Shown: one piece after another, positions 1-7,420 of the stretch
How positions within the stretch are numbered: position 1 is the stretch's first letter
Layout: each line of letters opens with the position of its first letter
Assembly: GCF_000179635.2 (NCBI RefSeq)
Contig: NC_014827.1
Span: 1 to 7,420, forward strand
Direction: 5' to 3'
From: Ruminococcus albus 7 = DSM 20455
GTDB lineage: Bacteria; Bacillota; Clostridia; Oscillospirales; Ruminococcaceae
DNA: 7,420 nt
Position numbers and translations under genes: made by a program
Notes under the pieces: generated by a model
Told to the model about the DNA's origin: nothing
Seen by the model: only the letters and a program-made list of their open reading frames with translations
The model's database searches: none

Positions 1-7
1 GTGGAGA

Positions 8-376
8 ATGTATATGCAGGAATTTGAAATAATATTTTATGAAAAGGCTGATGGGACAGAGCCGGCAAAGGATTTTATATTAAGTCTTGATACAAAGATG
101 AGAGCTAAAATGTTCAGAACAGTAGAGCTTCTTCAAAAAAACGGCAACAGATTAAGAGAACCGGAATCAAAGCCTATAGAAGACGGTATAATGGAGTTAA
201 GAGCAAAAGTAGGCTCGGATATATCTAGGGTCTTGTATTTCTTTGTAGTCGGACATAAAGTTGTTTTGACAAATGGCTTTATAAAGAAAACACAAAAAAC
301 ACCAAGGTCAGAGATTGAAAGAGCCAAACAGTACAGAGCTGATTATCTAAGCAGAAAGGAGAATGAAAATGACTAA
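8..376 (+). CDS. Type II toxin, RelE/HigB-like (phage Gp49-like/DUF891-type) mRNA interferase
   Basis: The 122-aa ORF has a family-typical layout: N-terminal EFEIIFYE..G..P.KDFL, then ELR.K.GSDI.RVLYFF..G..VVLTNGFIKKTQKTP..EIERA. It sits immediately upstream of, and overlaps, a small XRE-HTH gene. GGAG at 3-6 fits ATG 14 better than ATG 8, so the true start may be 14. Confidence 0.85.
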   Translation: MYMQEFEIIFYEKADGTEPAKDFILSLDTKMRAKMFRTVELLQKNGNRLREPESKPIEDGIMELRAKVGSDISRVLYFFVVGHKVVLTNGFIKKTQKTPRSEIERAKQYRADYLSRKENEND

Positions 377-641
377 TTTCAATGAACTTCTCGCAGAGCA
401 GATGAAAGATGATGAATTTCGTAGAGAATATGAAGCACTTGAACCAGAATTTACAATTATGCAGGCTATGATAGATGCTCGTAATTCAAGCGGACTTACG
501 CAGAAACAGCTTTCAGATCGTTCGGGTATAGCACAGGGTGATATAAGCAAGCTTGAAAACGGAAATGCTAATCCGTCAATAAGAACTTTACAACGGCTTG
601 CAAATGCTATGGGCAAAAAACTTAGGATAGAGTTTTTATAA
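363..641 (+). CDS. XRE-family helix-turn-helix antitoxin (HigA-like)
   Basis: The 92-aa ORF has an HTH core, GLTQKQLSDRSGIAQGDISKLENGNANPSIRTLQRLANAMG. It overlaps the toxin stop by 14 nt. AGGAG at 357-361 sits 7 nt before ATG 369, so the start is 363 or 369. Confidence 0.85.
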   Translation: MKMTNFNELLAEQMKDDEFRREYEALEPEFTIMQAMIDARNSSGLTQKQLSDRSGIAQGDISKLENGNANPSIRTLQRLANAMGKKLRIEFL

Positions 642-651
642 TAACAATTAT

Positions 652-697
652 AAAGACGGACTACCGCAGCAGCGGACAGTCCGTCTTTTTCTTTTTT
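652..697. terminator. Bidirectional rho-independent terminator between convergent genes
   Basis: Perfect 11-bp stem AAAGACGGACT (652-662) / AGTCCGTCTTT (678-688) with a 15-nt loop. A T-run follows on the plus strand. The A-rich left flank gives a U-rich tail for the minus-strand transcript. Confidence 0.75.
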
Positions 698-706
698 GTC
701 AGCCCA

Positions 707-991
707 TTATTCGGGCTTATTGTCGGGAAAATCATTCATAGCCTTGTTAAAGAAGCCGCCCCTCTGGTTCTGACCTTTGAGGAACGCAACAAGACGTTCG
801 ATATCACCATCTGCATACTCTCTGCCGAGTACGCTGTATACCGCACCGCCGATCTCTATCAAGTGCCGTGTGCGTTTTTTTCTTTCGTCCGCTGACTTCT
901 GTGCTTTCAGCTTTTTCTCTTGTGCTTTGAGCTGTTTCTGCTTTTCTTGCAGCTCAGCTATTCGTTCTTCATATGTCTTACTTTTTGACAT
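707..991 (-). CDS. DUF3847-like small coiled-coil protein (typical neighbour of MobQ relaxases; putative relaxosome accessory)
   Basis: The 94-aa ORF has an N-terminal Lys/Glu/Gln coiled coil (ELQEKQKQLKAQEKKLKAQ), then RKKRTRHLIEIGGAV...L. From memory this is the DUF3847 pattern. AAGAGG (complement of 1001-1006) lies 9 nt upstream of ATG 991. Confidence 0.75.
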   Translation of the reverse strand: MSKSKTYEERIAELQEKQKQLKAQEKKLKAQKSADERKKRTRHLIEIGGAVYSVLGREYADGDIERLVAFLKGQNQRGGFFNKAMNDFPDNKPE

Positions 992-1397
992 AATTTAATA
1001 CCTCTTTCCCTTTGTATTCAATAAAATCCAGCGCAACCATATCAGGCAAATAGGGTGGCTTTTTAAAACCTCTTTTGTTATATTTAGGCTTGTATTTCTG
1101 TATGTAATATCTCTCATAATCTGCAAGCGAATTTAGATTGGGTGTTTCTGCGCACATAATATAAGACACTTCTTCCCAAAATGGACTTTCTTCAATGTGC
1201 TTTGACATTCTATTTGCTATGTTTTGAGTGTGTCCAACGTAGATCACTATATTATTGTTATTATAGAACAAGTATATGTAAGGACTTCTATCATATAAAA
1301 TACAATTAGGCTCATAAATAATGTCATCAAGCCCAAGTGCCTTTATTCGATACCATTCTTTTAAAGCTTCTAATTGAAAATCTCTAAGCATATACAT
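978..1397 (-). CDS. GIY-YIG domain nuclease (small, free-standing)
   Basis: Motifs appear in order: YIYLF-(8 aa)-IYVGHT, an Arg in NRMSKH, then a Glu in YERYYIQKYKPKYN. This is the GIY..YIG..R..H..E..N layout. The track's TTG start at 1436 is actually the -35 hexamer of its own promoter. The real start is ATG 1397 or ATG 1391, with GGTGA just upstream. The 3' end overlaps the DUF3847-like gene by 14 nt. Confidence 0.75.
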   Translation of the reverse strand: MYMLRDFQLEALKEWYRIKALGLDDIIYEPNCILYDRSPYIYLFYNNNNIVIYVGHTQNIANRMSKHIEESPFWEEVSYIMCAETPNLNSLADYERYYIQKYKPKYNKRGFKKPPYLPDMVALDFIEYKGKEVLNYVKK

Positions 1398-1407
1398 CAC
1401 CAGTATA

Positions 1408-1436
1408 ATTTTATCATATATACATTGATTTGTCAA
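1408..1436 (-). promoter_or_regulatory. Sigma-A type promoter for the GIY-YIG/DUF3847 operon
   Basis: On the minus strand: TTGACA (1436-1431), a 17-nt spacer, then TAAAAT (1413-1408). The predicted TSS is only a few nt from the GGTGATG start region, so the leader is very short. Confidence 0.6.
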
Positions 1437-1443
1437 GTAGGTA

Positions 1444-1472
1444 TTGACAAACTAAGCGAAATTTGATATAAT
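1444..1472 (+). promoter_or_regulatory. Consensus extended -10 promoter for the relaxase operon
   Basis: TTGACA (1444-1449), a 17-nt spacer, then TATAAT (1467-1472), with TG at 1464-1465 (TGnTATAAT). Confidence 0.8.
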
Positions 1473-1480
1473 CATTTCTT

Positions 1481-1556
1481 AAGAGCGCAGCGAATAGAAA
1501 TGCGCACTTATACACCACATTCGCTACGCTCACATGGTGTATTTAAGTGCGCTCTC
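1481..1556 (+). other. oriT, MOBQ type, with predicted nic core TAAGTGCGCTCT
   Basis: TAAGTGCGCTCT (1544-1555) differs at one position from the MOBQ nic consensus TAAGTGCGCCCT of RSF1010/R1162, pIP501 and pGO1. It is preceded by IR arms TACACCA (1511-1517) / TGGTGTA (1535-1541). A longer IR spans 1502-1517 / 1535-1552 with a 2-nt bulge. Interleaved IRs are also present: AGCGAAT 1489-1495 / ATTCGCT 1519-1525, and AGAGCGCA 1482-1489 / TGCGCTCT 1548-1555. By analogy the nick falls at GTGCG|CTCT, about 1551/1552. Confidence 0.7.
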
Positions 1557-1620
1557 CGAGGGCAAGAGCGTTCCCCTCTTGACTTCCCTTTTTATTTTTC
1601 AGAGAAAGGAGTGTTGCCAA

Positions 1621-3027
1621 ATGGCAATCTATCATTGCAGTATTAAGATAGGCAGCAGAGCAAACGGACAAAGCGCAATAGCCGCAGCAGCGTATCGAGC
1701 AGGTGACAATCTGAAAGATAAAGAAACTGGTTTAGTGTCCGACTACTCCCGAAAGGGCGGCGTTGTGTTTTCCGAAATCTCGTTGTGCCAAAACGCTCCT
1801 GCCGAATATGCCGACAGGGCTACTCTTTGGAACGCAGTTCACGAAATCGAGAAAGCCAAAAACTCACAGTTGTGGCGTGAGTTTGAGGTGGCACTTCCGC
1901 AGGAGTTTAGCCGAGCCGAACAGATAGACACAGTTCGTGGATTTGTCAAAGGCTTGACCAAGCAAGGAATGTGTGTGGATTGGAGCTTGCACGATAAAGA
2001 GGACGGAAACCCACACGCTCATATCATGGCTACTATGCGGAGCATAACCGAGGGCGGCAAATGGGCACCCAAGAGCCGCAAGGTGTATGACCTTGACGAG
2101 AACGGCGAGCGCATTTTTCAAAAAGTCGATAAGTCGGGGCGCAAGCAGTACAAGAACCACAAAGAAGATTACAACGATTGGAACAAGAAAGAGCGTGTCG
2201 AGGAATGGAGAGCTGCGTGGGCTGCTTGCTGCAATGAAAGGCTTGCCGAGCGTGATCGGATAGATCACCGCAGCTATAAACGGCAGGGCATAGAGCAAGA
2301 GCCGACTATCCATGAGGGATATGCAGCAAGGAAAATCGCAGCCGAGGGTAAGCCCTCGGAGCGTGTTCGCATAAATGAAGAAATCCGAGAGAGAAATAAT
2401 ATGCTGAAACAGCTTGCCGAGCAGCTGCACCACATCGAACAGCAGCTTGCCGAGCTTATCAAGGAGAAAGGAAGTGCAGCGATCAATGCAGGAAAACAAC
2501 GAATTGCAGACCTACTCGCCCGAAGAAGTCGAGCAGTTGATAGCGATGACCGAGGACTTGCAGACGGAGAACGAACAACAGAGAGCCGAACTGAACGAAC
2601 TACGGCAACAGAAGCAGACCGCCTTATCAGAGAATCAGAAGCTGAAAGACGAGCTGCACTCCGCAATGTTGGACTTGAAGAAAGTGGAAGGACAGCACAA
2701 GGAAACGAGAAAAAAGCTGAACACTCTGCTACACGGTTACAACCCACAGAACAACCAGACACAGCAGCAATCTTCGGAGCTGCGGACAGCCTTATCCAAG
2801 ATACAGACACTAACCAAGAAGCTGTCAGAGCAGCAACGGCAGACACAGACAGTACTATCCGACAATCAGAAACTAAGGTCACAAGTGCAGCAGCTCACCG
2901 CCAAGAACGAGAGCTTGCAGAGCAGCGACGAGCAGCTGAAGAACGCCGAAGAGCTGAAGAAGCAGAGCGCAAGGCAAGAGCAGCAAGCGAAAGAGCGAGA
3001 AAGACGAGCTACGATAGAGGCAGATAG
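1621..3027 (+). CDS. MobA/MobL (MOBQ) family relaxase; the C-terminal ~180 codons are doubtful
   Basis: AGGAG at 1607-1611 lies 9 nt before ATG 1621. The N-terminus MAIYHCSIKIGSRANGQSAIAAAAYRAG parallels RSF1010 MobA (MAIYHLTAKTGSR...), with the candidate catalytic Tyr at residue 25 (codon 1693-1695). The His-triad motif HDKEDGNPHAHIM is at about 1990-2028. The track start at 1534 lies inside oriT and has no RBS. The frame stays open to TAG 3025-3027, but only through a T-poor tract where every frame is open. Confidence 0.85.
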   Translation: MAIYHCSIKIGSRANGQSAIAAAAYRAGDNLKDKETGLVSDYSRKGGVVFSEISLCQNAPAEYADRATLWNAVHEIEKAKNSQLWREFEVALPQEFSRAEQIDTVRGFVKGLTKQGMCVDWSLHDKEDGNPHAHIMATMRSITEGGKWAPKSRKVYDLDENGERIFQKVDKSGRKQYKNHKEDYNDWNKKERVEEWRAAWAACCNERLAERDRIDHRSYKRQGIEQEPTIHEGYAARKIAAEGKPSERVRINEEIRERNNMLKQLAEQLHHIEQQLAELIKEKGSAAINAGKQRIADLLARRSRAVDSDDRGLADGERTTESRTERTTATEADRLIRESEAERRAALRNVGLEESGRTAQGNEKKAEHSATRLQPTEQPDTAAIFGAADSLIQDTDTNQEAVRAATADTDSTIRQSETKVTSAAAHRQERELAEQRRAAEERRRAEEAERKARAASERARKTSYDRGR

Positions 3028-3667
3028 GGCTAGACGAGAAGCAGCCGCAGCAATCGCAAGAGCCGAGCAAAAAGAAGAAGCGGCGATAATAGCCAAGAAC
3101 GCAGCGGAACATACCAAGCAGCAGCAGGAAAGTATCATCAAAGAGAAAGCAGAAGCCTTAAACAGGCAATATCAGGTGGAATGGAACGTTATTGGTGTTG
3201 CCCTTATCGTGTATAGCTTATTTGCTACCGTGTTCACCGCCATTAAGTCAAAACGCTGTATGTCTGATATTACCGCAGCAGGAAAGCTAATAGTTAAAAT
3301 CGCAAAGGGAATAGTTCATGTGATAACTGCCCTTGCAAGCCGTGTCGGAAGTGTCGGAGCGAAAATCCCACAGCCCATAGTGTCCACGATCGTGAGCTAT
3401 TTGCTAATGGCACTTATTACAGCGATATGTGTTGTTGTTATCCTTGCACCCTTGTATTTGGGCATTAAAGCTATTTCAAACTGCTATACGCTGCATTGTT
3501 GGGACGAGGTAAGTCCATTGGTTGCCCTGGTCTGCCTTGCAGTTCTTGTGTGGGGAGCTGAACTCATGCCGTTGAACATCGTGCTGCTGATGATACTTTC
3601 ACACGCAGCATACATCGTTGTCCGTTGGTACATAGATGGTTGGAGAGAGGCAAGAGGACTAGCATAA
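2486..3667 (+). CDS. Gln/Glu/Lys-rich coiled-coil protein with polytopic membrane C-terminal domain (function unknown)
   Basis: The SD-like AGAAAGGAAGTG (2465-2476) precedes ATG 2486. About 230 aa are heptad-like coiled coil with a duplicated motif: QTALSENQKLK (2615-2647) and QTVLSDNQKLR (2846-2878). Four to five hydrophobic helices follow from about 3181 (VIGVALIVYSLFATVFTAI; IVSTIVSYLLMALITAICVVVILAPLYLGI; LVALVCLAVLVWGA; LNIVLLMILSHAAYIVV). Confidence 0.7.
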   Translation: MQENNELQTYSPEEVEQLIAMTEDLQTENEQQRAELNELRQQKQTALSENQKLKDELHSAMLDLKKVEGQHKETRKKLNTLLHGYNPQNNQTQQQSSELRTALSKIQTLTKKLSEQQRQTQTVLSDNQKLRSQVQQLTAKNESLQSSDEQLKNAEELKKQSARQEQQAKERERRATIEADRARREAAAAIARAEQKEEAAIIAKNAAEHTKQQQESIIKEKAEALNRQYQVEWNVIGVALIVYSLFATVFTAIKSKRCMSDITAAGKLIVKIAKGIVHVITALASRVGSVGAKIPQPIVSTIVSYLLMALITAICVVVILAPLYLGIKAISNCYTLHCWDEVSPLVALVCLAVLVWGAELMPLNIVLLMILSHAAYIVVRWYIDGWREARGLA

Positions 3668-3688
3668 TGCCCTCAGAAGCCACCGTAA

Positions 3689-3759
3689 GCCACACAGAGC
3701 CACGCTAATCTTAATAATATAGAATCACCCCTTACACTCTTGAAACGCCACACAGAGCC
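3689..3759. repeat. 13-bp direct repeat GCCACACAGAGCC (3689-3701 and 3747-3759) in an intergenic region
   Basis: Both copies are exact. CTCAGAA is also duplicated (3672-3678 and 3761-3767). AATGCCCTC (3666-3674) can pair with GAGGGGCATT (3773-3782), which is followed by T5. Confidence 0.6.
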
Positions 3760-3868
3760 GCTCAGAACGTGCGAGGGGCATTTTTACAGCCTTTTTCTCG
3801 CGGAGATAGAAATGTATTGGTGAAGTTGGTACTATAAACATTTAATTGAAAGCGTCACAAAATCAGTA

Positions 3869-3897
3869 TTGACAAATGGAGATTTATGTGCTATACT
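3869..3897 (+). promoter_or_regulatory. Strong extended -10 promoter upstream of the replication module
   Basis: TTGACA (3869-3874), a 17-nt spacer, then TATACT (3892-3897), with TG at 3889-3890. It shares the context GTATTGACAAA with the relaxase promoter (1441-1451 vs 3866-3876). Confidence 0.7.
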
Positions 3898-3904
3898 GAA
3901 AAAA

Positions 3905-4019
3905 AGGTAAAAAAACTTATTGATAATCTAAGCCCCTTATACCGTAGGTATTCTGAGGGGGCTGACAGAGTAGGTAAAAAAACTTATTGATAATCTAAGC
4001 CCCTTATACCGTAGGTATT
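3905..4019. repeat. Two perfect 48-bp direct repeats (3905-3952 and 3972-4019), period 67 bp
   Basis: AGGTAAAAAAACTTATTGATAATCTAAGCCCCTTATACCGTAGGTATT occurs twice without mismatch. The copies are separated by 19 nt (CTGAGGGGGCTGACAGAGT). The first copy starts about 8 nt after the -10 box. Confidence 0.95.
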
Positions 4020-4042
4020 GAGCGTGAGCGTGTGTGGGGCGG

Positions 4043-4099
4043 TTCTTCTTTCTTTTGGTTCTTTTCTTTCTTCTCCAAGAAAAGAAGAAAGAAAAGAAC
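4043..4099. repeat. Homopyrimidine mirror repeat plus perfect 17-bp homopyrimidine/homopurine hairpin
   Basis: Mirror repeat: TCTTCTTTCTTTT (4044-4056) / TTTTCTTTCTTCT (4062-4074). Hairpin: GTTCTTTTCTTTCTTCT (4058-4074) pairs perfectly with AGAAGAAAGAAAAGAAC (4083-4099), with an 8-nt loop CCAAGAAA. Confidence 0.9.
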
Positions 4100-4137
4100 G
4101 TTACCCGCAGTAATGATGTTATATCCGCATAAGTGAG

Positions 4138-5556
4138 GTGTTCTGCTTGTCCGATAATGTATTGAATAACTTCCGTGAGTGCTATGAGCTGCTTTCCAAC
4201 GTGTACGATCAGGTCAATGGCGAGGACTTCTATCGTTATATCTTCCCCGACAACGAGAACTCTGGTGAGCTGTCCAGCGATTTTTCTCACCCTAACGCTA
4301 TTTATCTGTATCACGATGAACAGGACGAGGGTGCAAAAAGGCGTTTACGCCGCAGGATAATGCTCAATGATACGTGGGCTTCTGATTATATGGACTATGT
4401 TGAGGGGAACGGCATGACTTTGTGCAGCGGTCTGACTTATCATAGCCGCAGCAACAAGCTCCAGTATGCTCAGACCATGAACGCACTCATTTTTGACCTT
4501 GACGGTGTCGGGCGTTCTGAATTGGAGCACGTTTTGGAGCGTACAACAGGTTCGGGCGATGTTTACCGCAGTATTCCTAAGCCGACTTTCATTGTTTTGA
4601 GTGGGCGAGGGCTTCACTTGTACTATGTTTTTGATGAGCCTATCGCCCTTTATCCCAACATAAAGCTGCAATTGAAGTCCTTGAAACACGATCTCACATT
4701 CAGAATATGGGAGTATAAAGGCACTTCGCAGGTCGAGAGTATTCAGTATCAGAGCATCGGTCAAGGTTTCCGTATGGTCGGCAGCACTAACAGCAAGTAT
4801 GGGAATACCGTCACTGCCTTTAAAATCGGCGGTAAAGTCAGCCTTGATTTCCTCAATAGCTATGCTATTAAGCCCGAAAATCGGGTTGATGTTAACCGTC
4901 CGTACCGCCCGAGCAAAATTGACCGAGCAACCGCAGCGGAGCTTTATCCCGAATGGTATCAGAAAGTTGTTGTTGAGGGCAACAAACGCCCTAACAAGTG
5001 GAATATCGGCTATCGTAAGAAGAAGCAAGTCAAAGACTATGCTCTTTATGAGTGGTGGAAACGCCGTGTGACCGAGATTGAGGGCGGACACCGTTATTTT
5101 TACCTTATGTGCCTTGTAATATACGCCTGCAAGTGTGATGTACCGAAAAAACAGCTCAAAGTCGATATTCAGGCGTGTTTTGAAGTCCTTCGTGCTTATA
5201 AACACAATAACGAGCTGACACAAGATGATGTTGATAGTGCTATGGAGTGCTATTCAAAGGATTATTATAATTTCACGATAGCTGATATCGAGATCTTGAC
5301 CGATGTTCGTATCGAGCGTAATAAGCGGAACTATCAAAAGCAGGAGTGGCATTTGGAAGATATCCGAAGTAAAAAGGCAAATATGAAACGTAGAGGTCAG
5401 CCTTTTAGAAATGCCGAGGGCAGACCAAGTAAGCAGCAGATCGTACTTGAATGGCAGCAGCTGCACCCTATGGGGCGCAAAGTTGATTGTATCAGAGATA
5501 CTGGTTTGTCAAAGCCTACCGTTCTCAAATGGTGGCGAAAGGAGTTTGAAGCATGA
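4138..5556 (+). CDS. Replication protein with AEP-type primase-polymerase (Prim-Pol) core, PriCT-like region and C-terminal HTH
   Basis: AEP-like motifs: ALIFDLDGV (DxD), LSGRGLHLYYVF (sGxGxH) and GFRMVGSTNSKYG (R.xGS.N.K). EGGHRYFYLMCLVIYACKCDV resembles PriCT. The C-terminal GRPSKQQIVLEW...GLSKPTVLKWW resembles a resolvase/Hin-type HTH. The start is uncertain: GTG 4138 overlaps its own GAGG, whereas TTG 4147 sits 6 nt after GAGGTG (4135-4140). Confidence 0.75.
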   Translation: MFCLSDNVLNNFRECYELLSNVYDQVNGEDFYRYIFPDNENSGELSSDFSHPNAIYLYHDEQDEGAKRRLRRRIMLNDTWASDYMDYVEGNGMTLCSGLTYHSRSNKLQYAQTMNALIFDLDGVGRSELEHVLERTTGSGDVYRSIPKPTFIVLSGRGLHLYYVFDEPIALYPNIKLQLKSLKHDLTFRIWEYKGTSQVESIQYQSIGQGFRMVGSTNSKYGNTVTAFKIGGKVSLDFLNSYAIKPENRVDVNRPYRPSKIDRATAAELYPEWYQKVVVEGNKRPNKWNIGYRKKKQVKDYALYEWWKRRVTEIEGGHRYFYLMCLVIYACKCDVPKKQLKVDIQACFEVLRAYKHNNELTQDDVDSAMECYSKDYYNFTIADIEILTDVRIERNKRNYQKQEWHLEDIRSKKANMKRRGQPFRNAEGRPSKQQIVLEWQQLHPMGRKVDCIRDTGLSKPTVLKWWRKEFEA

Positions 5557-6104
5557 GCAAAACCATAAAGCAGATCGCTGACGAGCTGGGCGTGAGCAAA
5601 GACCGAGTAAAGTATCTAGTGAAAAAATTACCCAGTGGGTGGGTAGAAAAACGGGGAAATATTACCTACATAAATGCTGATGGTGAACGGAATATCTATA
5701 TGCTAGAGGGAAAAAAGTGGGGAAAATCTGACGAAATTACCCATATTGAAACCGAACTTGATCGGGTAATTTCTACCCACTTACCCACCGAAGAACAGAA
5801 GAAAGATATGGAAATTGAGAGGTTAAAAGCTAGGGTTGCAGAACTTGAACGCCAATTAGAATATGAAAGGGCTAATTCCGAAGAGAAACAAGCTCTTTTG
5901 AAAGCGTGGAATGATGAACAGATACAGCAATTTAATCGCATAATTGAGGATAATAAAAAATTATTACAGCTTATAGACCAAGAACAGCAGCTGCATTTAC
6001 GTTCGATTGAGAGTAAAGATAAAGGTCTTGCTATCGAGGAAAAGCAGCCCGAACCTAAGCGGCATTGGTGGCAGCGTAAACGAAAGGAGCCGACCGAGGA
6101 ATGA
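5553..6104 (+). CDS. HTH plus coiled-coil protein (DUF536-like plasmid replication-associated type)
   Basis: ATGA stop/start overlap with the upstream gene. GGAG at 5541-5544 lies 8 nt upstream. N-terminal HTH: TIKQIADELGVSKDRVKYLVKKL. The C-terminal coiled coil ends in LLQLIDQEQQLHL, which from memory resembles the DUF536 signature. Confidence 0.7.
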   Translation: MSKTIKQIADELGVSKDRVKYLVKKLPSGWVEKRGNITYINADGERNIYMLEGKKWGKSDEITHIETELDRVISTHLPTEEQKKDMEIERLKARVAELERQLEYERANSEEKQALLKAWNDEQIQQFNRIIEDNKKLLQLIDQEQQLHLRSIESKDKGLAIEEKQPEPKRHWWQRKRKEPTEE

Positions 6105-6307
6105 ACGAGCCGACAAAAAAGAAGAAAGGCGGAGCGAGGGCAGGAGCAGGCGCAAAGCCAAAATACGGCTGCAAGACCGTGACAATGCGTGTTCCTGCTG
6201 ATATGGTGGACGAAATCAGGGCTTTTATCTGCAAGAAAAAACATATCGAGCCGAAGCCTGAGCCTGAACAAGAGCTAGAGGGGCAAGTTTCCTTTAGCGA
6301 TATATAA
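6101..6307 (+). CDS. Small basic ribbon-helix-helix-like DNA-binding protein
   Basis: ATGA overlap with the upstream gene. The 68-aa product has a Lys/Gly-rich N-terminal tail (KKKKGGARAGAGAKPKYG). TVTMRVPADMVDEIRAFI fits a beta-strand/helix RHH pattern. The assignment is by pattern only. Confidence 0.55.
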   Translation: MNEPTKKKKGGARAGAGAKPKYGCKTVTMRVPADMVDEIRAFICKKKHIEPKPEPEQELEGQVSFSDI

Positions 6308-6319
6308 GGAGGACTAACA

Positions 6320-6718
6320 ATGGATATCAAGTTTTACAATGAAGAACACCAAAAGGCATTTTACAGCATTTGTAAGCGAATGAAACACCTTGACTGCTAC
6401 CATTTTTCGCTTGCGTATCTTCTTTCTCTCGATAAGGTACTTCGTGAACATACCGATGAAGTATTCGACTTCAAAGAGGACTGTATAAAACGTGAGGGGC
6501 TGCACAAAGGCTTTCAGACAGGCACTTCGATGAAAACAACACGCCTTGCCTTTAACCTTTGGAATGGCTGCTATGATGACGGTGAAACCTACACGAATAA
6601 GGACGGCTATGAAACGGAGCTGCCGAGCAGCTACTACTCGCCCGATCAGATCTTCTGCTGCAAGGACTATGCACCGTACTACTGGCAGGCTATTCGGATC
6701 CGTTTTGAATTGAATTAG
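6320..6718 (+). CDS. Uncharacterised conserved protein, DUF6075-like
   Basis: AAGGAGG at 6306-6312 lies 7 nt before ATG 6320. The 132-aa product has features I recall from the DUF6075 family of Firmicutes mobile elements: N-terminal F.NE.H...F, D.YH...AYLLS, W..G, and FCC..YAPYYWQAIRIRF at the C-terminus. Confidence 0.65.
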   Translation: MDIKFYNEEHQKAFYSICKRMKHLDCYHFSLAYLLSLDKVLREHTDEVFDFKEDCIKREGLHKGFQTGTSMKTTRLAFNLWNGCYDDGETYTNKDGYETELPSSYYSPDQIFCCKDYAPYYWQAIRIRFELN

Positions 6719-6725
6719 TATAGAA

Positions 6726-6755
6726 AAAAGGCGAAACAATAACGTTTCGCCTTTT
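6726..6755. terminator. Bidirectional rho-independent terminator
   Basis: AAAAGGCGAAAC (6726-6737) / GTTTCGCCTTTT (6744-6755) is a perfect 12-bp stem with a 6-nt loop. Its outer 4 bp come from the flanking A-run and T-run. Confidence 0.85.
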
Positions 6756-6757
6756 GA

Positions 6758-6988
6758 TCATTGTTCGATATTACTTTTTTTGACTAAAATCCAATCACAA
6801 GGAAATATATGTTTTTTGTCTGCTTTATAAACTAGTATTAAAACAAATATCCATATATGTTTGGTTTTTACTACGTTATTATTTCCTAAAGAGTCCCTTA
6901 TGATCATTGCAGAGGGTCCATCCTTAGAATTAAATATATCTTGCTGTTGTATGTGTTTTAGAATATAATTTTTTTCTTGTAATTTCAT
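6758..6988 (-). CDS. Hypothetical small protein (weak call)
   Basis: Internal ATG at 6988 gives MKLQEKNYIL..., 76 aa, with one hydrophobic stretch (HIWIFVLILVY). No SD, and only 2 nt after the upstream stop. AT-rich. No recognisable domain. Confidence 0.3.
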   Translation of the reverse strand: MKLQEKNYILKHIQQQDIFNSKDGPSAMIIRDSLGNNNVVKTKHIWIFVLILVYKADKKHIFPCDWILVKKSNIEQ

Positions 6989-6990
6989 TA

Positions 6991-7233
6991 TTAAAGTTTT
7001 ACCGTTGAGCTGGCGTTTCCTAAGTAAGCCTTTCCGCCTGCAATAGTTGTAATGTAGACGTTTTTCCAACCAACCTTTACTTTCTTGGTGTTTTTCGGAA
7101 TTGAAAATGATTTTGTAGAGCCATTTGCCTTGTTATATCTTCCATTAAGGTCTTTGTATTCATCTATTCTGCCTGAAAAATAACTTTTGGGTTTTAATAT
7201 TGATGTGTTACTGCAGTATATTGTTCCAGACAC
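6991..7233 (-). CDS. Hypothetical beta-rich ORF, possibly a 5'-truncated gene remnant (weak call)
   Basis: The only start is GTG 7233, with no SD. The same frame is open upstream to about 7405 without any ATG. A promoter-like element lies at 7283-7311. Confidence 0.3.
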   Translation of the reverse strand: MSGTIYCSNTSILKPKSYFSGRIDEYKDLNGRYNKANGSTKSFSIPKNTKKVKVGWKNVYITTIAGGKAYLGNASSTVKL

Positions 7234-7282
7234 ATTGGTTATCTGTGTTCCTGTTGCGCTCCAATAGAGATGAGCTTTATCT

Positions 7283-7311
7283 ATTATATCACTTTTTTGA
7301 GTGATTGTAAA
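7283..7311 (-). promoter_or_regulatory. Candidate extended -10 promoter reading leftwards
   Basis: On the minus strand: TTTACA (7311-7306), a 17-nt spacer, then TATAAT (7288-7283), with TG at 7291-7290. The region carries the inverted repeat ATCACT/AGTGAT (7288-7293 / 7300-7305); the distal arm lies in the spacer and the proximal arm overlaps the last base of the -10. Confidence 0.5.
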
Positions 7312-7362
7312 AACAGAAATAACACTTTGTATTTGTAATTTGTGAATTTTTCTCCAATAGCA

Positions 7363-7391
7363 TTGACAATATAGGATTTATCCTATATAAT
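7363..7391 (+). promoter_or_regulatory. Consensus promoter reading out of the right end of the window
   Basis: TTGACA (7363-7368), a 17-nt spacer, then TATAAT (7386-7391). The target gene is outside the window. Confidence 0.6.
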
Positions 7392-7414
7392 TAATTATAG
7401 GATAAATCCTATAA
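7369..7414. promoter_or_regulatory. Two 20-bp palindromic operator-like sites
   Basis: ATATAGGAT-TT-ATCCTATAT (7369-7388) fills the -35/-10 spacer. TTATAGGAT-AA-ATCCTATAA (7395-7414) covers the predicted TSS. The centres are 26 bp apart and are joined by the palindromic AATTAATT. Confidence 0.8.
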
Positions 7415-7420
7415 TTTGAT

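Follow-up and report, generated by a model that had tools for sequence, protein, structure and literature searches.

A family-wide sequence unit, tandemly duplicated beside rep in a small Ruminococcus albus plasmid, as a putative site of a primase-type initiator

The window analysed here is the whole 7,420-nt stretch of contig NC_014827.1 from Ruminococcus albus 7 = DSM 20455 (assembly GCF_000179635.2, positions 1 to 7,420 of the forward strand), which looks like a complete small mobilisable plasmid and encodes an archaeo-eukaryotic primase (AEP) type of replication initiator (Rep). Two perfect 48-bp direct repeats lie in the leader of the rep gene, and comparison with related loci shows that they are tandem copies of a family-wide unit of about 40 bp that adjoins this rep in several phyla. 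With moderate confidence, each repeat is read as the recognition element or origin core of the initiator, duplicated in tandem in this plasmid; the pair would then be two separate sites, held similar by gene conversion, and not a cooperative iteron array. The initiator family is known, but the branch to which this cis element belongs has received little study; unusual points are a core that is invariant between phyla, the location in the leader and the association with promoters.

The unit and its conservation

The repeats form one 48-nt family in the window. Its two copies (3905-3952 and 3972-4019, period 67 bp) were found by a repeat finder to be 100% identical, an identity with a chance expectation of about 1e-22 in 7.4 kb (some 2.7e7 position pairs x 4^-48; own arithmetic). 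The preliminary description of this DNA, made from the letters alone, had placed two such perfect repeats downstream of a strong promoter and upstream of rep, and had them begin about 8 nt after the -10 box. Both statements hold: the promoter scores 11/12, with a TG before the -10 box, and is kept in close relatives, and copy 1 starts at the 8th nt past that box, approximately 130 nt 5' of rep. Transcription of the leader would start near 3904, so placing the units at about +2 to +115 of the predicted transcript. The leader and rep comprise the following features:

3869-3897, plus strand: near-consensus sigma-70-type promoter for the rep leader (-35 box TTGACA, 3869-3874; spacer of 17 nt that includes the TG; -10 box TATACT, 3892-3897)
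3905-3952, plus strand: unit copy 1 (A-tract 3909-3915; 13-mer TTGATAATCTAAG at 3920-3932; C-run 3933-3936; hairpin ATACC-GTA-GGTAT at 3939-3951)
3953-3971, plus strand: 19-nt spacer CTGAGGGGGCTGACAGAGT, with a GGGGGCT able to pair with AGCCCC of copy 1; variable in close relatives
3972-4019, plus strand: unit copy 2 (13-mer at 3987-3999), with no promoter of its own
4020-4042, plus strand: GAGCGTGAGCGTGTGTGGGGCGG, a clade-conserved segment 3' of copy 2; in the predicted fold its GGGGC is paired to the GCCCC of that copy
4058-4099, no strand assigned: perfect polypyrimidine/polypurine palindrome of 17 bp with an 8-nt loop (GTTCTTTTCTTTCTTCT / AGAAGAAAGAAAAGAAC), between the units and rep
4147-5556, plus strand: rep, AEP-type initiator with a primase domain, a helical domain and a C-terminal helix-turn-helix (HTH); given as 4138-5556 in the list of open reading frames (ORFs)

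Conservation was assessed on about 100 loci encoding Rep homologues (cited below by L numbers), with unit counts made on 76 loci, the exact 13-mer counted in 62 distinct upstream regions and the logo built from 83 unique units. The unit has an asymmetric layout consisting of an A-tract, four to five variable nucleotides, the 13-mer TTGATAATCTAAG and a C-run, often followed by a short variable hairpin. The exact 13-mer occurs on the rep-sense strand in 51/62 distinct upstream regions and on the opposite strand in none, against a chance expectation of 6e-4. When up to two mismatches in the 13-mer are allowed, 72 of the 76 loci have one or more units, in the orientation of rep, in the 700 nt that precede it. 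It had been proposed beforehand that conservation of the repeat and its copy number be checked in related elements, and that related replicons able to replicate normally without the repeats would argue against a role for them. Copy number proves to vary from 1 to 6, and it is the repetition that is often absent, the unit almost never.

A sequence logo of the 83 unique units delimits a conserved core of about 32 bp (positions -10 to +21) composed of AAAAAA at -10 to -5, T-n-TA, the 13-mer, CCCCC and T-a-t-A; a further A-run (-20 to -16) and G, together spanning -20 to -13, are seen in promoter-proximal copies only. The 48-bp repeat of the window is this family unit plus a clade-specific hairpin, that of ATACC-GTA-GGTAT. 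The unit is retained down to about 53% Rep protein identity, and nearly all distant variants have in common an A-tract, four to five nucleotides and TTGATAA (the exception, L013, has TTGAAAA). Plasmids of other genera carry it as follows:

Listeria pDB2011: two units, 13-mer exact
Clostridioides difficile pCd13_cfrC: one unit, 13-mer exact
Enterococcus hirae pS2-7-a: one unit, ATAAG variant
Aerococcus pUMB7049: three units, TTGATAATATACG
Helicobacter pylori pHPv225d: three units, TTGATAAATATAAG
Campylobacter coli pCC31: two units, ggtaaaaaaaactcaTTGATAAGATTAG

The relaxases of unit-bearing backbones are of different types (MobA/MobL, MobV, MOBP) while the unit stays the same, and hence the unit follows Rep and not oriT; its identity as an oriT was rejected on this ground. 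In IMG/VR, the 17-mer in its A-tract context occurs only in three contigs, all of which encode Rep; six other exact 17-mer matches, which have neither the A-tract nor Rep, have the appearance of chance or coding matches. Two further identities were discarded. The 13-mer is not a -35 element (TTGATA), as no conserved -10 sequence follows 16-18 nt downstream, and the repeats do not constitute a CRISPR (clustered regularly interspaced short palindromic repeats) array, since two 48-nt repeats with one 19-nt spacer and no cas genes compare with at least three repeats of 24-40 nt, spacers of similar length and neighbouring cas genes in such arrays; two copies had already been judged too few for CRISPR, rightly. 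A megablast search of window positions 3600-4200 against PLSDB gave no match. Among the papers that could be searched, none had the 13-mer or a description of the origin, and none was informative on the origins of pAR67 or pCC31; older papers on pAR67, pDB2011 and pTet/pCC31 may mention repeats upstream of rep.

Most loci carry one unit (45/76), with two units in 19, three in 5 and five or six in 3. Spacings between units (67 bp in the window; 39-42, 56, 66-68, 71-77 and 87-116 bp in relatives) follow no helical phasing. As a single copy is commonest and phasing is lacking, the units look like independent sites and not like a cooperative array. The two-copy state of the window is shared, at the same distances from rep, by plasmids with 90-97% identical Rep, the orthologous second copy lying 151 nt from rep in L008, L017 and L019 and 152 nt in L018; the duplication thus predates the split of those lineages, which have since retained and homogenised it. 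Among the six closest two-copy plasmids (the window, L002, L008 and L017-L019), the resemblance between the two copies of one plasmid exceeds that between orthologous copies of different plasmids. The identity of the 5' flanks within a plasmid is 14-15/15 in five of the six (9/15 in L008), compared with a mean of 10.7-11.5 between plasmids; these variable flanks (GGTA or GTGA; CTTA or ATATA) match within plasmids and differ between them. The pattern indicates, from sequence, concerted evolution of the two copies by gene conversion, of which the 48/48 identity in the window would be the extreme. The 3' ends of the two copies retain position-specific signatures.

Units and promoters are coupled across the family. 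In 42/83 unique units (51%), a promoter-like site scoring 9/12 or more has its end in the 35 nt preceding the 13-mer, vs 6% of random positions, and the gaps from the -10 box to the 13-mer cluster at 19-28 nt. Each repeat has its own promoter in L012, L013, L030, L098, L099 and L100. Other arrangements occur as well: a single unit stands upstream of the rep promoter in L003, L005 and L020, and five to six promoterless units follow each other at 39-42 bp spacing in L035 and L050. The order in L037 is rep, an intrinsic terminator (CCCCCTGGCTATTCAGGGGG and a T-run), three units, an inverted-repeat block and the promoter of an unrelated toxin-antitoxin module. With the block behind a terminator and no rep after it, the unit is here a free-standing cis element and not a rep leader. 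The rep of L037 (1857-2100 region) overlaps the end of the upstream frame, read as a coiled-coil gene. In H. pylori pHPv225d there is no intergenic space downstream of rep, and no non-coding element besides the unit was found to be common to all Rep loci.

In the window, positions 3800-4000 are the most AT-rich part of the 3500-4400 profile, and the A-tract with its A/T-rich continuation (3909-3929) has a GC fraction of about 0.32. No DnaA boxes were found near the units.

The initiator and the origins of its relatives

Rep is a member of the published RepE/RepS family of AEP initiators. Its residues 11-239 are identical to WP_013483969.1 (Ruminococcus albus), which is listed in that family, whose members are uniformly of Prim+PriCT_1+HTH architecture (Kazlauskas et al., PMC5862659 and supplement). 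Across 31 homologues the motifs DLDG (I), SGxGLH (II) and Q..FRMVGS (a motif III with Gln) are invariant, and motifs I and II align with the polymerase domain of LigD. An AlphaFold model (predicted local distance difference test score, pLDDT, 71.5) has its best fold matches in RepB' primase (3h20, the top match), LigD-pol, the pRN1 primase and PriS. The label of PrimPol-type rep given in the preliminary description is thus supported by motifs, fold and family listing. In the model, a helical region (300-420) is followed by a three-helix C-terminal HTH (GRPSK...TGLSxxTVxKWW) with a conserved recognition helix; a few homologues give weak Pfam matches to HTH_7, HTH_23 and HTH_28. The domain may be Hin/resolvase-like and might read TTGATAA as Hin reads hix, an idea of ours that serves as a lead only. 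The frame first reported for rep (4138-5556) stands as an ORF, with a different start: translation probably begins at TTG 4147 rather than GTG 4138, because a ribosome-binding site (RBS), GAGGTG, lies 6 nt upstream of the former and the aligned codon is ATG in L005 and GTG in L003.

A homologue search returned 2392 proteins at E<=1e-3. R. albus AR67 has a close homologue (97% identity), as do other Clostridia from rumen and gut. Small mobilisable plasmids from Firmicutes of the rumen and the human gut carry this large family, and so do resistance plasmids (in Staphylococcus, Listeria, Enterococcus, C. difficile with cfrC, Proteus and E. coli) and Helicobacter and Campylobacter plasmids. Most homologues are annotated as hypothetical, HTH protein or "HTH regulator". 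In C. coli pCC31 (L112, 3740-3900) the annotated repA start (3835) falls within the second unit/promoter region; the true start probably follows the RBS GGGAGTGAGGTG near 3890. The published pCC31 RepA entry, which has Prim+PriCT_1 and no HTH, is short compared with its relatives, at 382 aa.

Two well-studied groups of AEP initiators act at single sites. The RepE monomer of pAMbeta1 binds one 25-bp site, melts 15 nt of adjoining AT-rich DNA and needs a transcript across the origin (PMC4981023, PMC5703833), and the minimal origin of the related pIP501 includes a short inverted repeat (PMC4981023). ColE2 Rep, an AEP primase, binds one asymmetric origin, needs no helicase to unwind it, using its PriCT-1 and HTH parts instead, and produces its own primer (PMC5862659).

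The Rep studied here resembles the RepE/RepR/RepS proteins of the Inc18 plasmids (pAMbeta1, pIP501, pSM19035) in its combination of AEP, helical (PriCT-1) and HTH parts and in its RepE/RepS label (PMC5862659). Likewise, its unit matches the logic of single-site origins, being present as one asymmetric copy in most relatives, with an adjoining A/T-rich tract, a promoter just upstream and, frequently, a short inverted repeat. The differences are also clear. Inc18 origins lie directly 3' of rep, whereas the unit lies in the rep leader (L037 excepted), and the distance from promoter to site is 19-28 nt here vs more than 1.5 kb in Inc18. The unit has no sequence similarity to the pAMbeta1 origin region, pAMbeta1 RepE aligns with Rep over motifs I-II only (E = 1e-4), and no arrangement of a CopR-type repressor with antisense RNA or attenuator was seen in the window leader.

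ColE2-P9, with its 32-bp origin, is similar in having a plasmid-specified AEP primase with PriCT-1 and HTH and one asymmetric site, and differs in that its origin is at the 3' end of rep and not significantly similar to the unit (p = 0.06-0.39; the ColE2 origin sequence was confirmed at 100% identity in PLSDB before alignment), and in that the Pfam Replicase and PriCT_1 models miss the window Rep. ColE2 replication is not known to depend on transcription. In RSF1010 the primase RepB' (3h20), which heads the structural matches to the Rep model, acts at ssiA and ssiB. These ssi sites consist of a hairpin and a conserved single-stranded segment, superficially like the 13-mer followed by a hairpin. 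RSF1010, however, needs the iteron-binding initiator RepC and the helicase RepA, and its two ssi sites are on opposite strands; in the present family all units are on one strand and no helicase or second initiator was identified in the window. The unit would thus appear to work like the origins of single-site AEP initiators, yet it cannot be called homologous to them, given that no similarity to the pAMbeta1 or ColE2 origins was detected, that it is placed upstream of rep and that the alignment with RepE is limited to motifs I-II.

On the favoured reading, Rep would bind the double-stranded unit as a single asymmetric site, with the conserved C-terminal HTH probably contributing to the reading of TTGATAATCTAAG, and with minor-groove or bending contacts engaging the A-tract beside it. 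Rep would then open the adjoining A/T-rich stretch (3909-3929), where the leading-strand primer would be made either by the primase of Rep itself, as by ColE2 Rep, or from a transcript, as with pAMbeta1 RepE; such a transcript would begin 13-21 nt upstream, at the coupled promoter. As the site is at most 115 nt into the rep transcript, Rep bound to it would in addition exert feedback on the expression of its own gene, and concurrent autoregulation of rep is likely in view of this leader position.

Several results weigh against this reading. The unit has no significant similarity to the origins of pAMbeta1 and ColE2, which moreover are found downstream of rep and not in its leader, and promoter coupling and leader position would be expected equally of an operator. 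A Pfam scan of Rep, which gave no family (no match to Rep_3/RepA or Replicase), did not detect a PriCT_1 domain. A fold search with the C-terminal half of Rep, aimed at the DNA-binding domain of ColE2 Rep or at Hin, returned generic HTH fragments and nothing significant in the PDB, where a sequence search with the HTH also gave nothing. Finally, the sequence of the recognition helix does not correlate with the variants of the 13-mer.

A narrower version of the proposal, which is tentative and rather doubtful, is that promoter and unit together form a self-contained, transcription-primed origin cassette, in which Rep on the 13-mer captures or processes the nascent RNA, or gives way to its own primase, to make the leading-strand primer. 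RNA polymerase would start 13-21 nt upstream of the Rep site, and each cassette would be an origin with its own primer promoter; tandem cassettes (L012, L013, L030, pDB2011, pHPv225d, pUMB7049) or tandem units behind one promoter (the window) would then amount to several origins. Rep bound in this way would at once throttle rep mRNA, coupling initiation to initiator supply at one site.

If the unit is indeed a Rep site, it provides these plasmids with a concrete origin and Rep-binding site in the form of a cis element of about 40 bp with an invariant 13-mer. It could then serve as a marker for recognising such replicons in metagenomes and as a starting point for vectors for hard-to-transform Ruminococcus and Lachnospiraceae, and would represent a third origin architecture (in the leader, promoter-coupled) among the few primase-type plasmid initiators studied.

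Alternative roles of the unit

The units might be operators only, binding Rep or another plasmid protein and blocking RNA polymerase past the rep promoter, with the origin elsewhere (e.g., in the palindrome at 4058-4099 or the non-coding region 6720-7420). Their position within the predicted transcript, the family-wide coupling to promoters and the loci in which every repeat has its own promoter would all fit a roadblock. This explanation is nevertheless unlikely: the L037 units lie downstream of rep and past a terminator, so that repression of rep cannot be the whole story, the unit precedes the promoter in L003, L005 and L020, and the five to six units of L035 and L050 are promoterless. In addition, the rep promoter has a separate inverted-repeat operator over its -35 box in L027 (10 bp) and L020 (8 bp), the accessory HTH genes 3' of rep are not universal, and, besides the unit, no non-coding element is common to all Rep loci. 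The autoregulatory roadblock suggested in the preliminary description therefore survives as a possible secondary effect of units in a transcribed leader, and fails as a full account on the evidence of L037.

Somewhat less likely again is a role in the transcript, where the unit would act as a structured 5' leader or short RNA that is bound by Rep, serves as primer precursor or template, or controls rep translation or stability. Units usually start near the predicted transcription start, and the minimum free energy (MFE) fold of 3904-4137 (-69.8 kcal/mol) is better than that of shuffled sequences (z = -4.2), a large share of it coming from the 17-bp palindrome. Predicted pairings include AGCCCCT (3931-3937) with AGGGGGCT (3956-3963) and GCCCC (3999-4003) with GGGGC (4036-4040). 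All the pairings proposed earlier, as well as the inner ATACC-GTA-GGTAT hairpin, appear in this fold ("3999-3903" in the preliminary description should be 3999-4003). Moreover, 36% of units have a perfect hairpin with a stem of 5 bp or more in the 30 nt past the 13-mer, vs 14% of shuffled sequences and 4% of control windows taken upstream; it starts at +19 to +21 and its stem differs by clade (ATACC/GGTAT, ATAGCC/GGCTAT, AGCCC/GGGCT, GTAAC/GTTAC, TATGC/GCATA).

Against an RNA role, folding energy has no strand bias (plus -9.0, minus -8.6, shuffles -7.5 kcal/mol), and RNAalifold on 22 units gave no consensus structure, the hairpins being out of register. The 13-mer, the most conserved part, is invariant and unpaired and hence offers no covariation, and some units are promoterless or upstream of promoters. 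Rfam yielded no match at E<=1 beyond chance-level microRNA and small RNA matches on the palindrome and a terminator; no minus-strand (antisense) promoter was found in the leader (3900-4140) and no complementary target of the 13-mer above chance in the window. A short inverted repeat is, besides, also part of the DNA origin of pIP501 (PMC4981023). Of the structured leader or template RNA envisaged at the outset, what persists is the enrichment of hairpins past the core; consensus structure, strand bias and an Rfam match are lacking, and promoterless units do not suit it.

It is quite improbable that the repeats are classical iterons, handcuffing sites or a centromere, working only as a multi-copy array through cooperative Rep binding, plasmid pairing or partition. 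As in the iteron origins of pPS10, F, R6K, RK2 and P1, there are direct repeats by rep that are presumed Rep sites, promoter-overlapping copies could autoregulate, and the copies, one to six in number, evolve in concert within each plasmid. Classical origins, however, have arrays of several phased 17-22-bp repeats and winged-helix Reps, unlike the core of about 32 bp, the one-copy norm, the unphased spacings and the AEP initiator found here, and no partition genes were found in the window. Array, phasing and initiator type were all tested, and the classical iteron origin was rejected on each. The suggestion of Rep-binding iterons or an origin thus divides, the comparative data favouring a Rep site or origin and telling against classical iterons. 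Perfectly identical copies, in a family where one copy is the commonest state, might also stem from a tandem duplication that is recent, neutral and itself without function, a reading that is highly improbable in view of the very strong constraint on the unit and the two-copy state common to plasmids with 90-97% identical Rep.

Other features of the plasmid

The palindrome at 4058-4099 is kept in the Ruminococcus clade (L001, L003, L005, L008, L017-L019, L025, L026), takes a variant form in L027 and L028, lacks one half in L002, and is thus not family-universal. It was rejected as an intrinsic terminator since no T-run follows it, and could be an unwinding element, a cruciform or hairpin, or a single-strand initiation site. 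The human-gut relatives L007, L035, L046, L054 and L097 have no 17-bp palindrome and carry a conserved nested inverted-repeat block of about 150 nt, some 60-250 nt upstream of rep. The block is also present in L013 and in L037 (2125-2230), there after the units with no rep downstream. It includes GGAGAAAGTC...GACTTTCTC, GGTAAACCC-loop-GGGTTTTCC and AAGGCGGC...GCCGCC, and changes in the GGTAAACCC-loop-GGGTTTTCC stem are apparently compensatory (AAACCC/GGGTTT, AAACCT/AGGTTT, AAACCCC/GGGGTTT). This block could act as a structured RNA or belong to the origin as a second component.

Inverted repeats overlap the -35 box of the rep promoter in relatives (10 bp in L027, GATTTTGTCA-N12-TGACAAAATC; 8 bp in L020), and only GTCA/TGAC (3854-3857, 3870-3873) is left of such a repeat at the window promoter. 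A promoter-associated motif, GT(A/T)TTGACAAA(T/C)(G/T), recurs in the window at 263-276, 1441-1456, 1611-1624 and 3866-3879. Together these sequences suggest a shared dimeric repressor. A tiny ORF, ATGATGTTATATCCGCATAAGTGA (MMLYPHK*), at 4114-4137 ends within the rep RBS; it occurs in the closest relatives only (MMLYQHK in L002), is absent from L003 and L005, and is probably non-functional.

The remaining genes of the window are:

8-641: Gp49-like/HTH toxin-antitoxin pair
minus strand: DUF3847 protein and GIY-YIG protein
1534-3027: MobA/MobL relaxase
2414-3667: ORF holding a DUF6040 membrane protein
3' of rep: three small genes, for an HTH/coiled-coil protein, a 68-aa protein and a DUF6075 protein

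A scan for tRNA and tmRNA genes in the window found none. The relaxase ORF overlaps the DUF6040-holding ORF by about 600 nt in a different frame. Because the DUF6040 match is limited to residues 192-415 of the latter, the real start of that gene is probably near 2990-3030. Downstream of it, at 3728-3790 and outside the Rep module, an inverted repeat (CCCCTTACAC...GTGCGAGGGG) followed by CATTTTT is a candidate terminator or oriT hairpin; it is kept with the MobA/MobL+DUF6040 backbone (L003, L005, L017-L019, L025) and absent from MobV backbones (L002, L008). Lastly, a 12/12 consensus promoter at 7363-7391 overlaps a perfect 18-bp palindrome, TATAGGATTTATCCTATA / TATAGGATAAATCCTATA (7370-7387, 7396-7413), just upstream, across the window ends, of the toxin-antitoxin pair. 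The palindrome (7370-7413) is probably the operator of the toxin-antitoxin operon, and its placement relative to the pair, across the window ends, suggests that the window is a circular plasmid.

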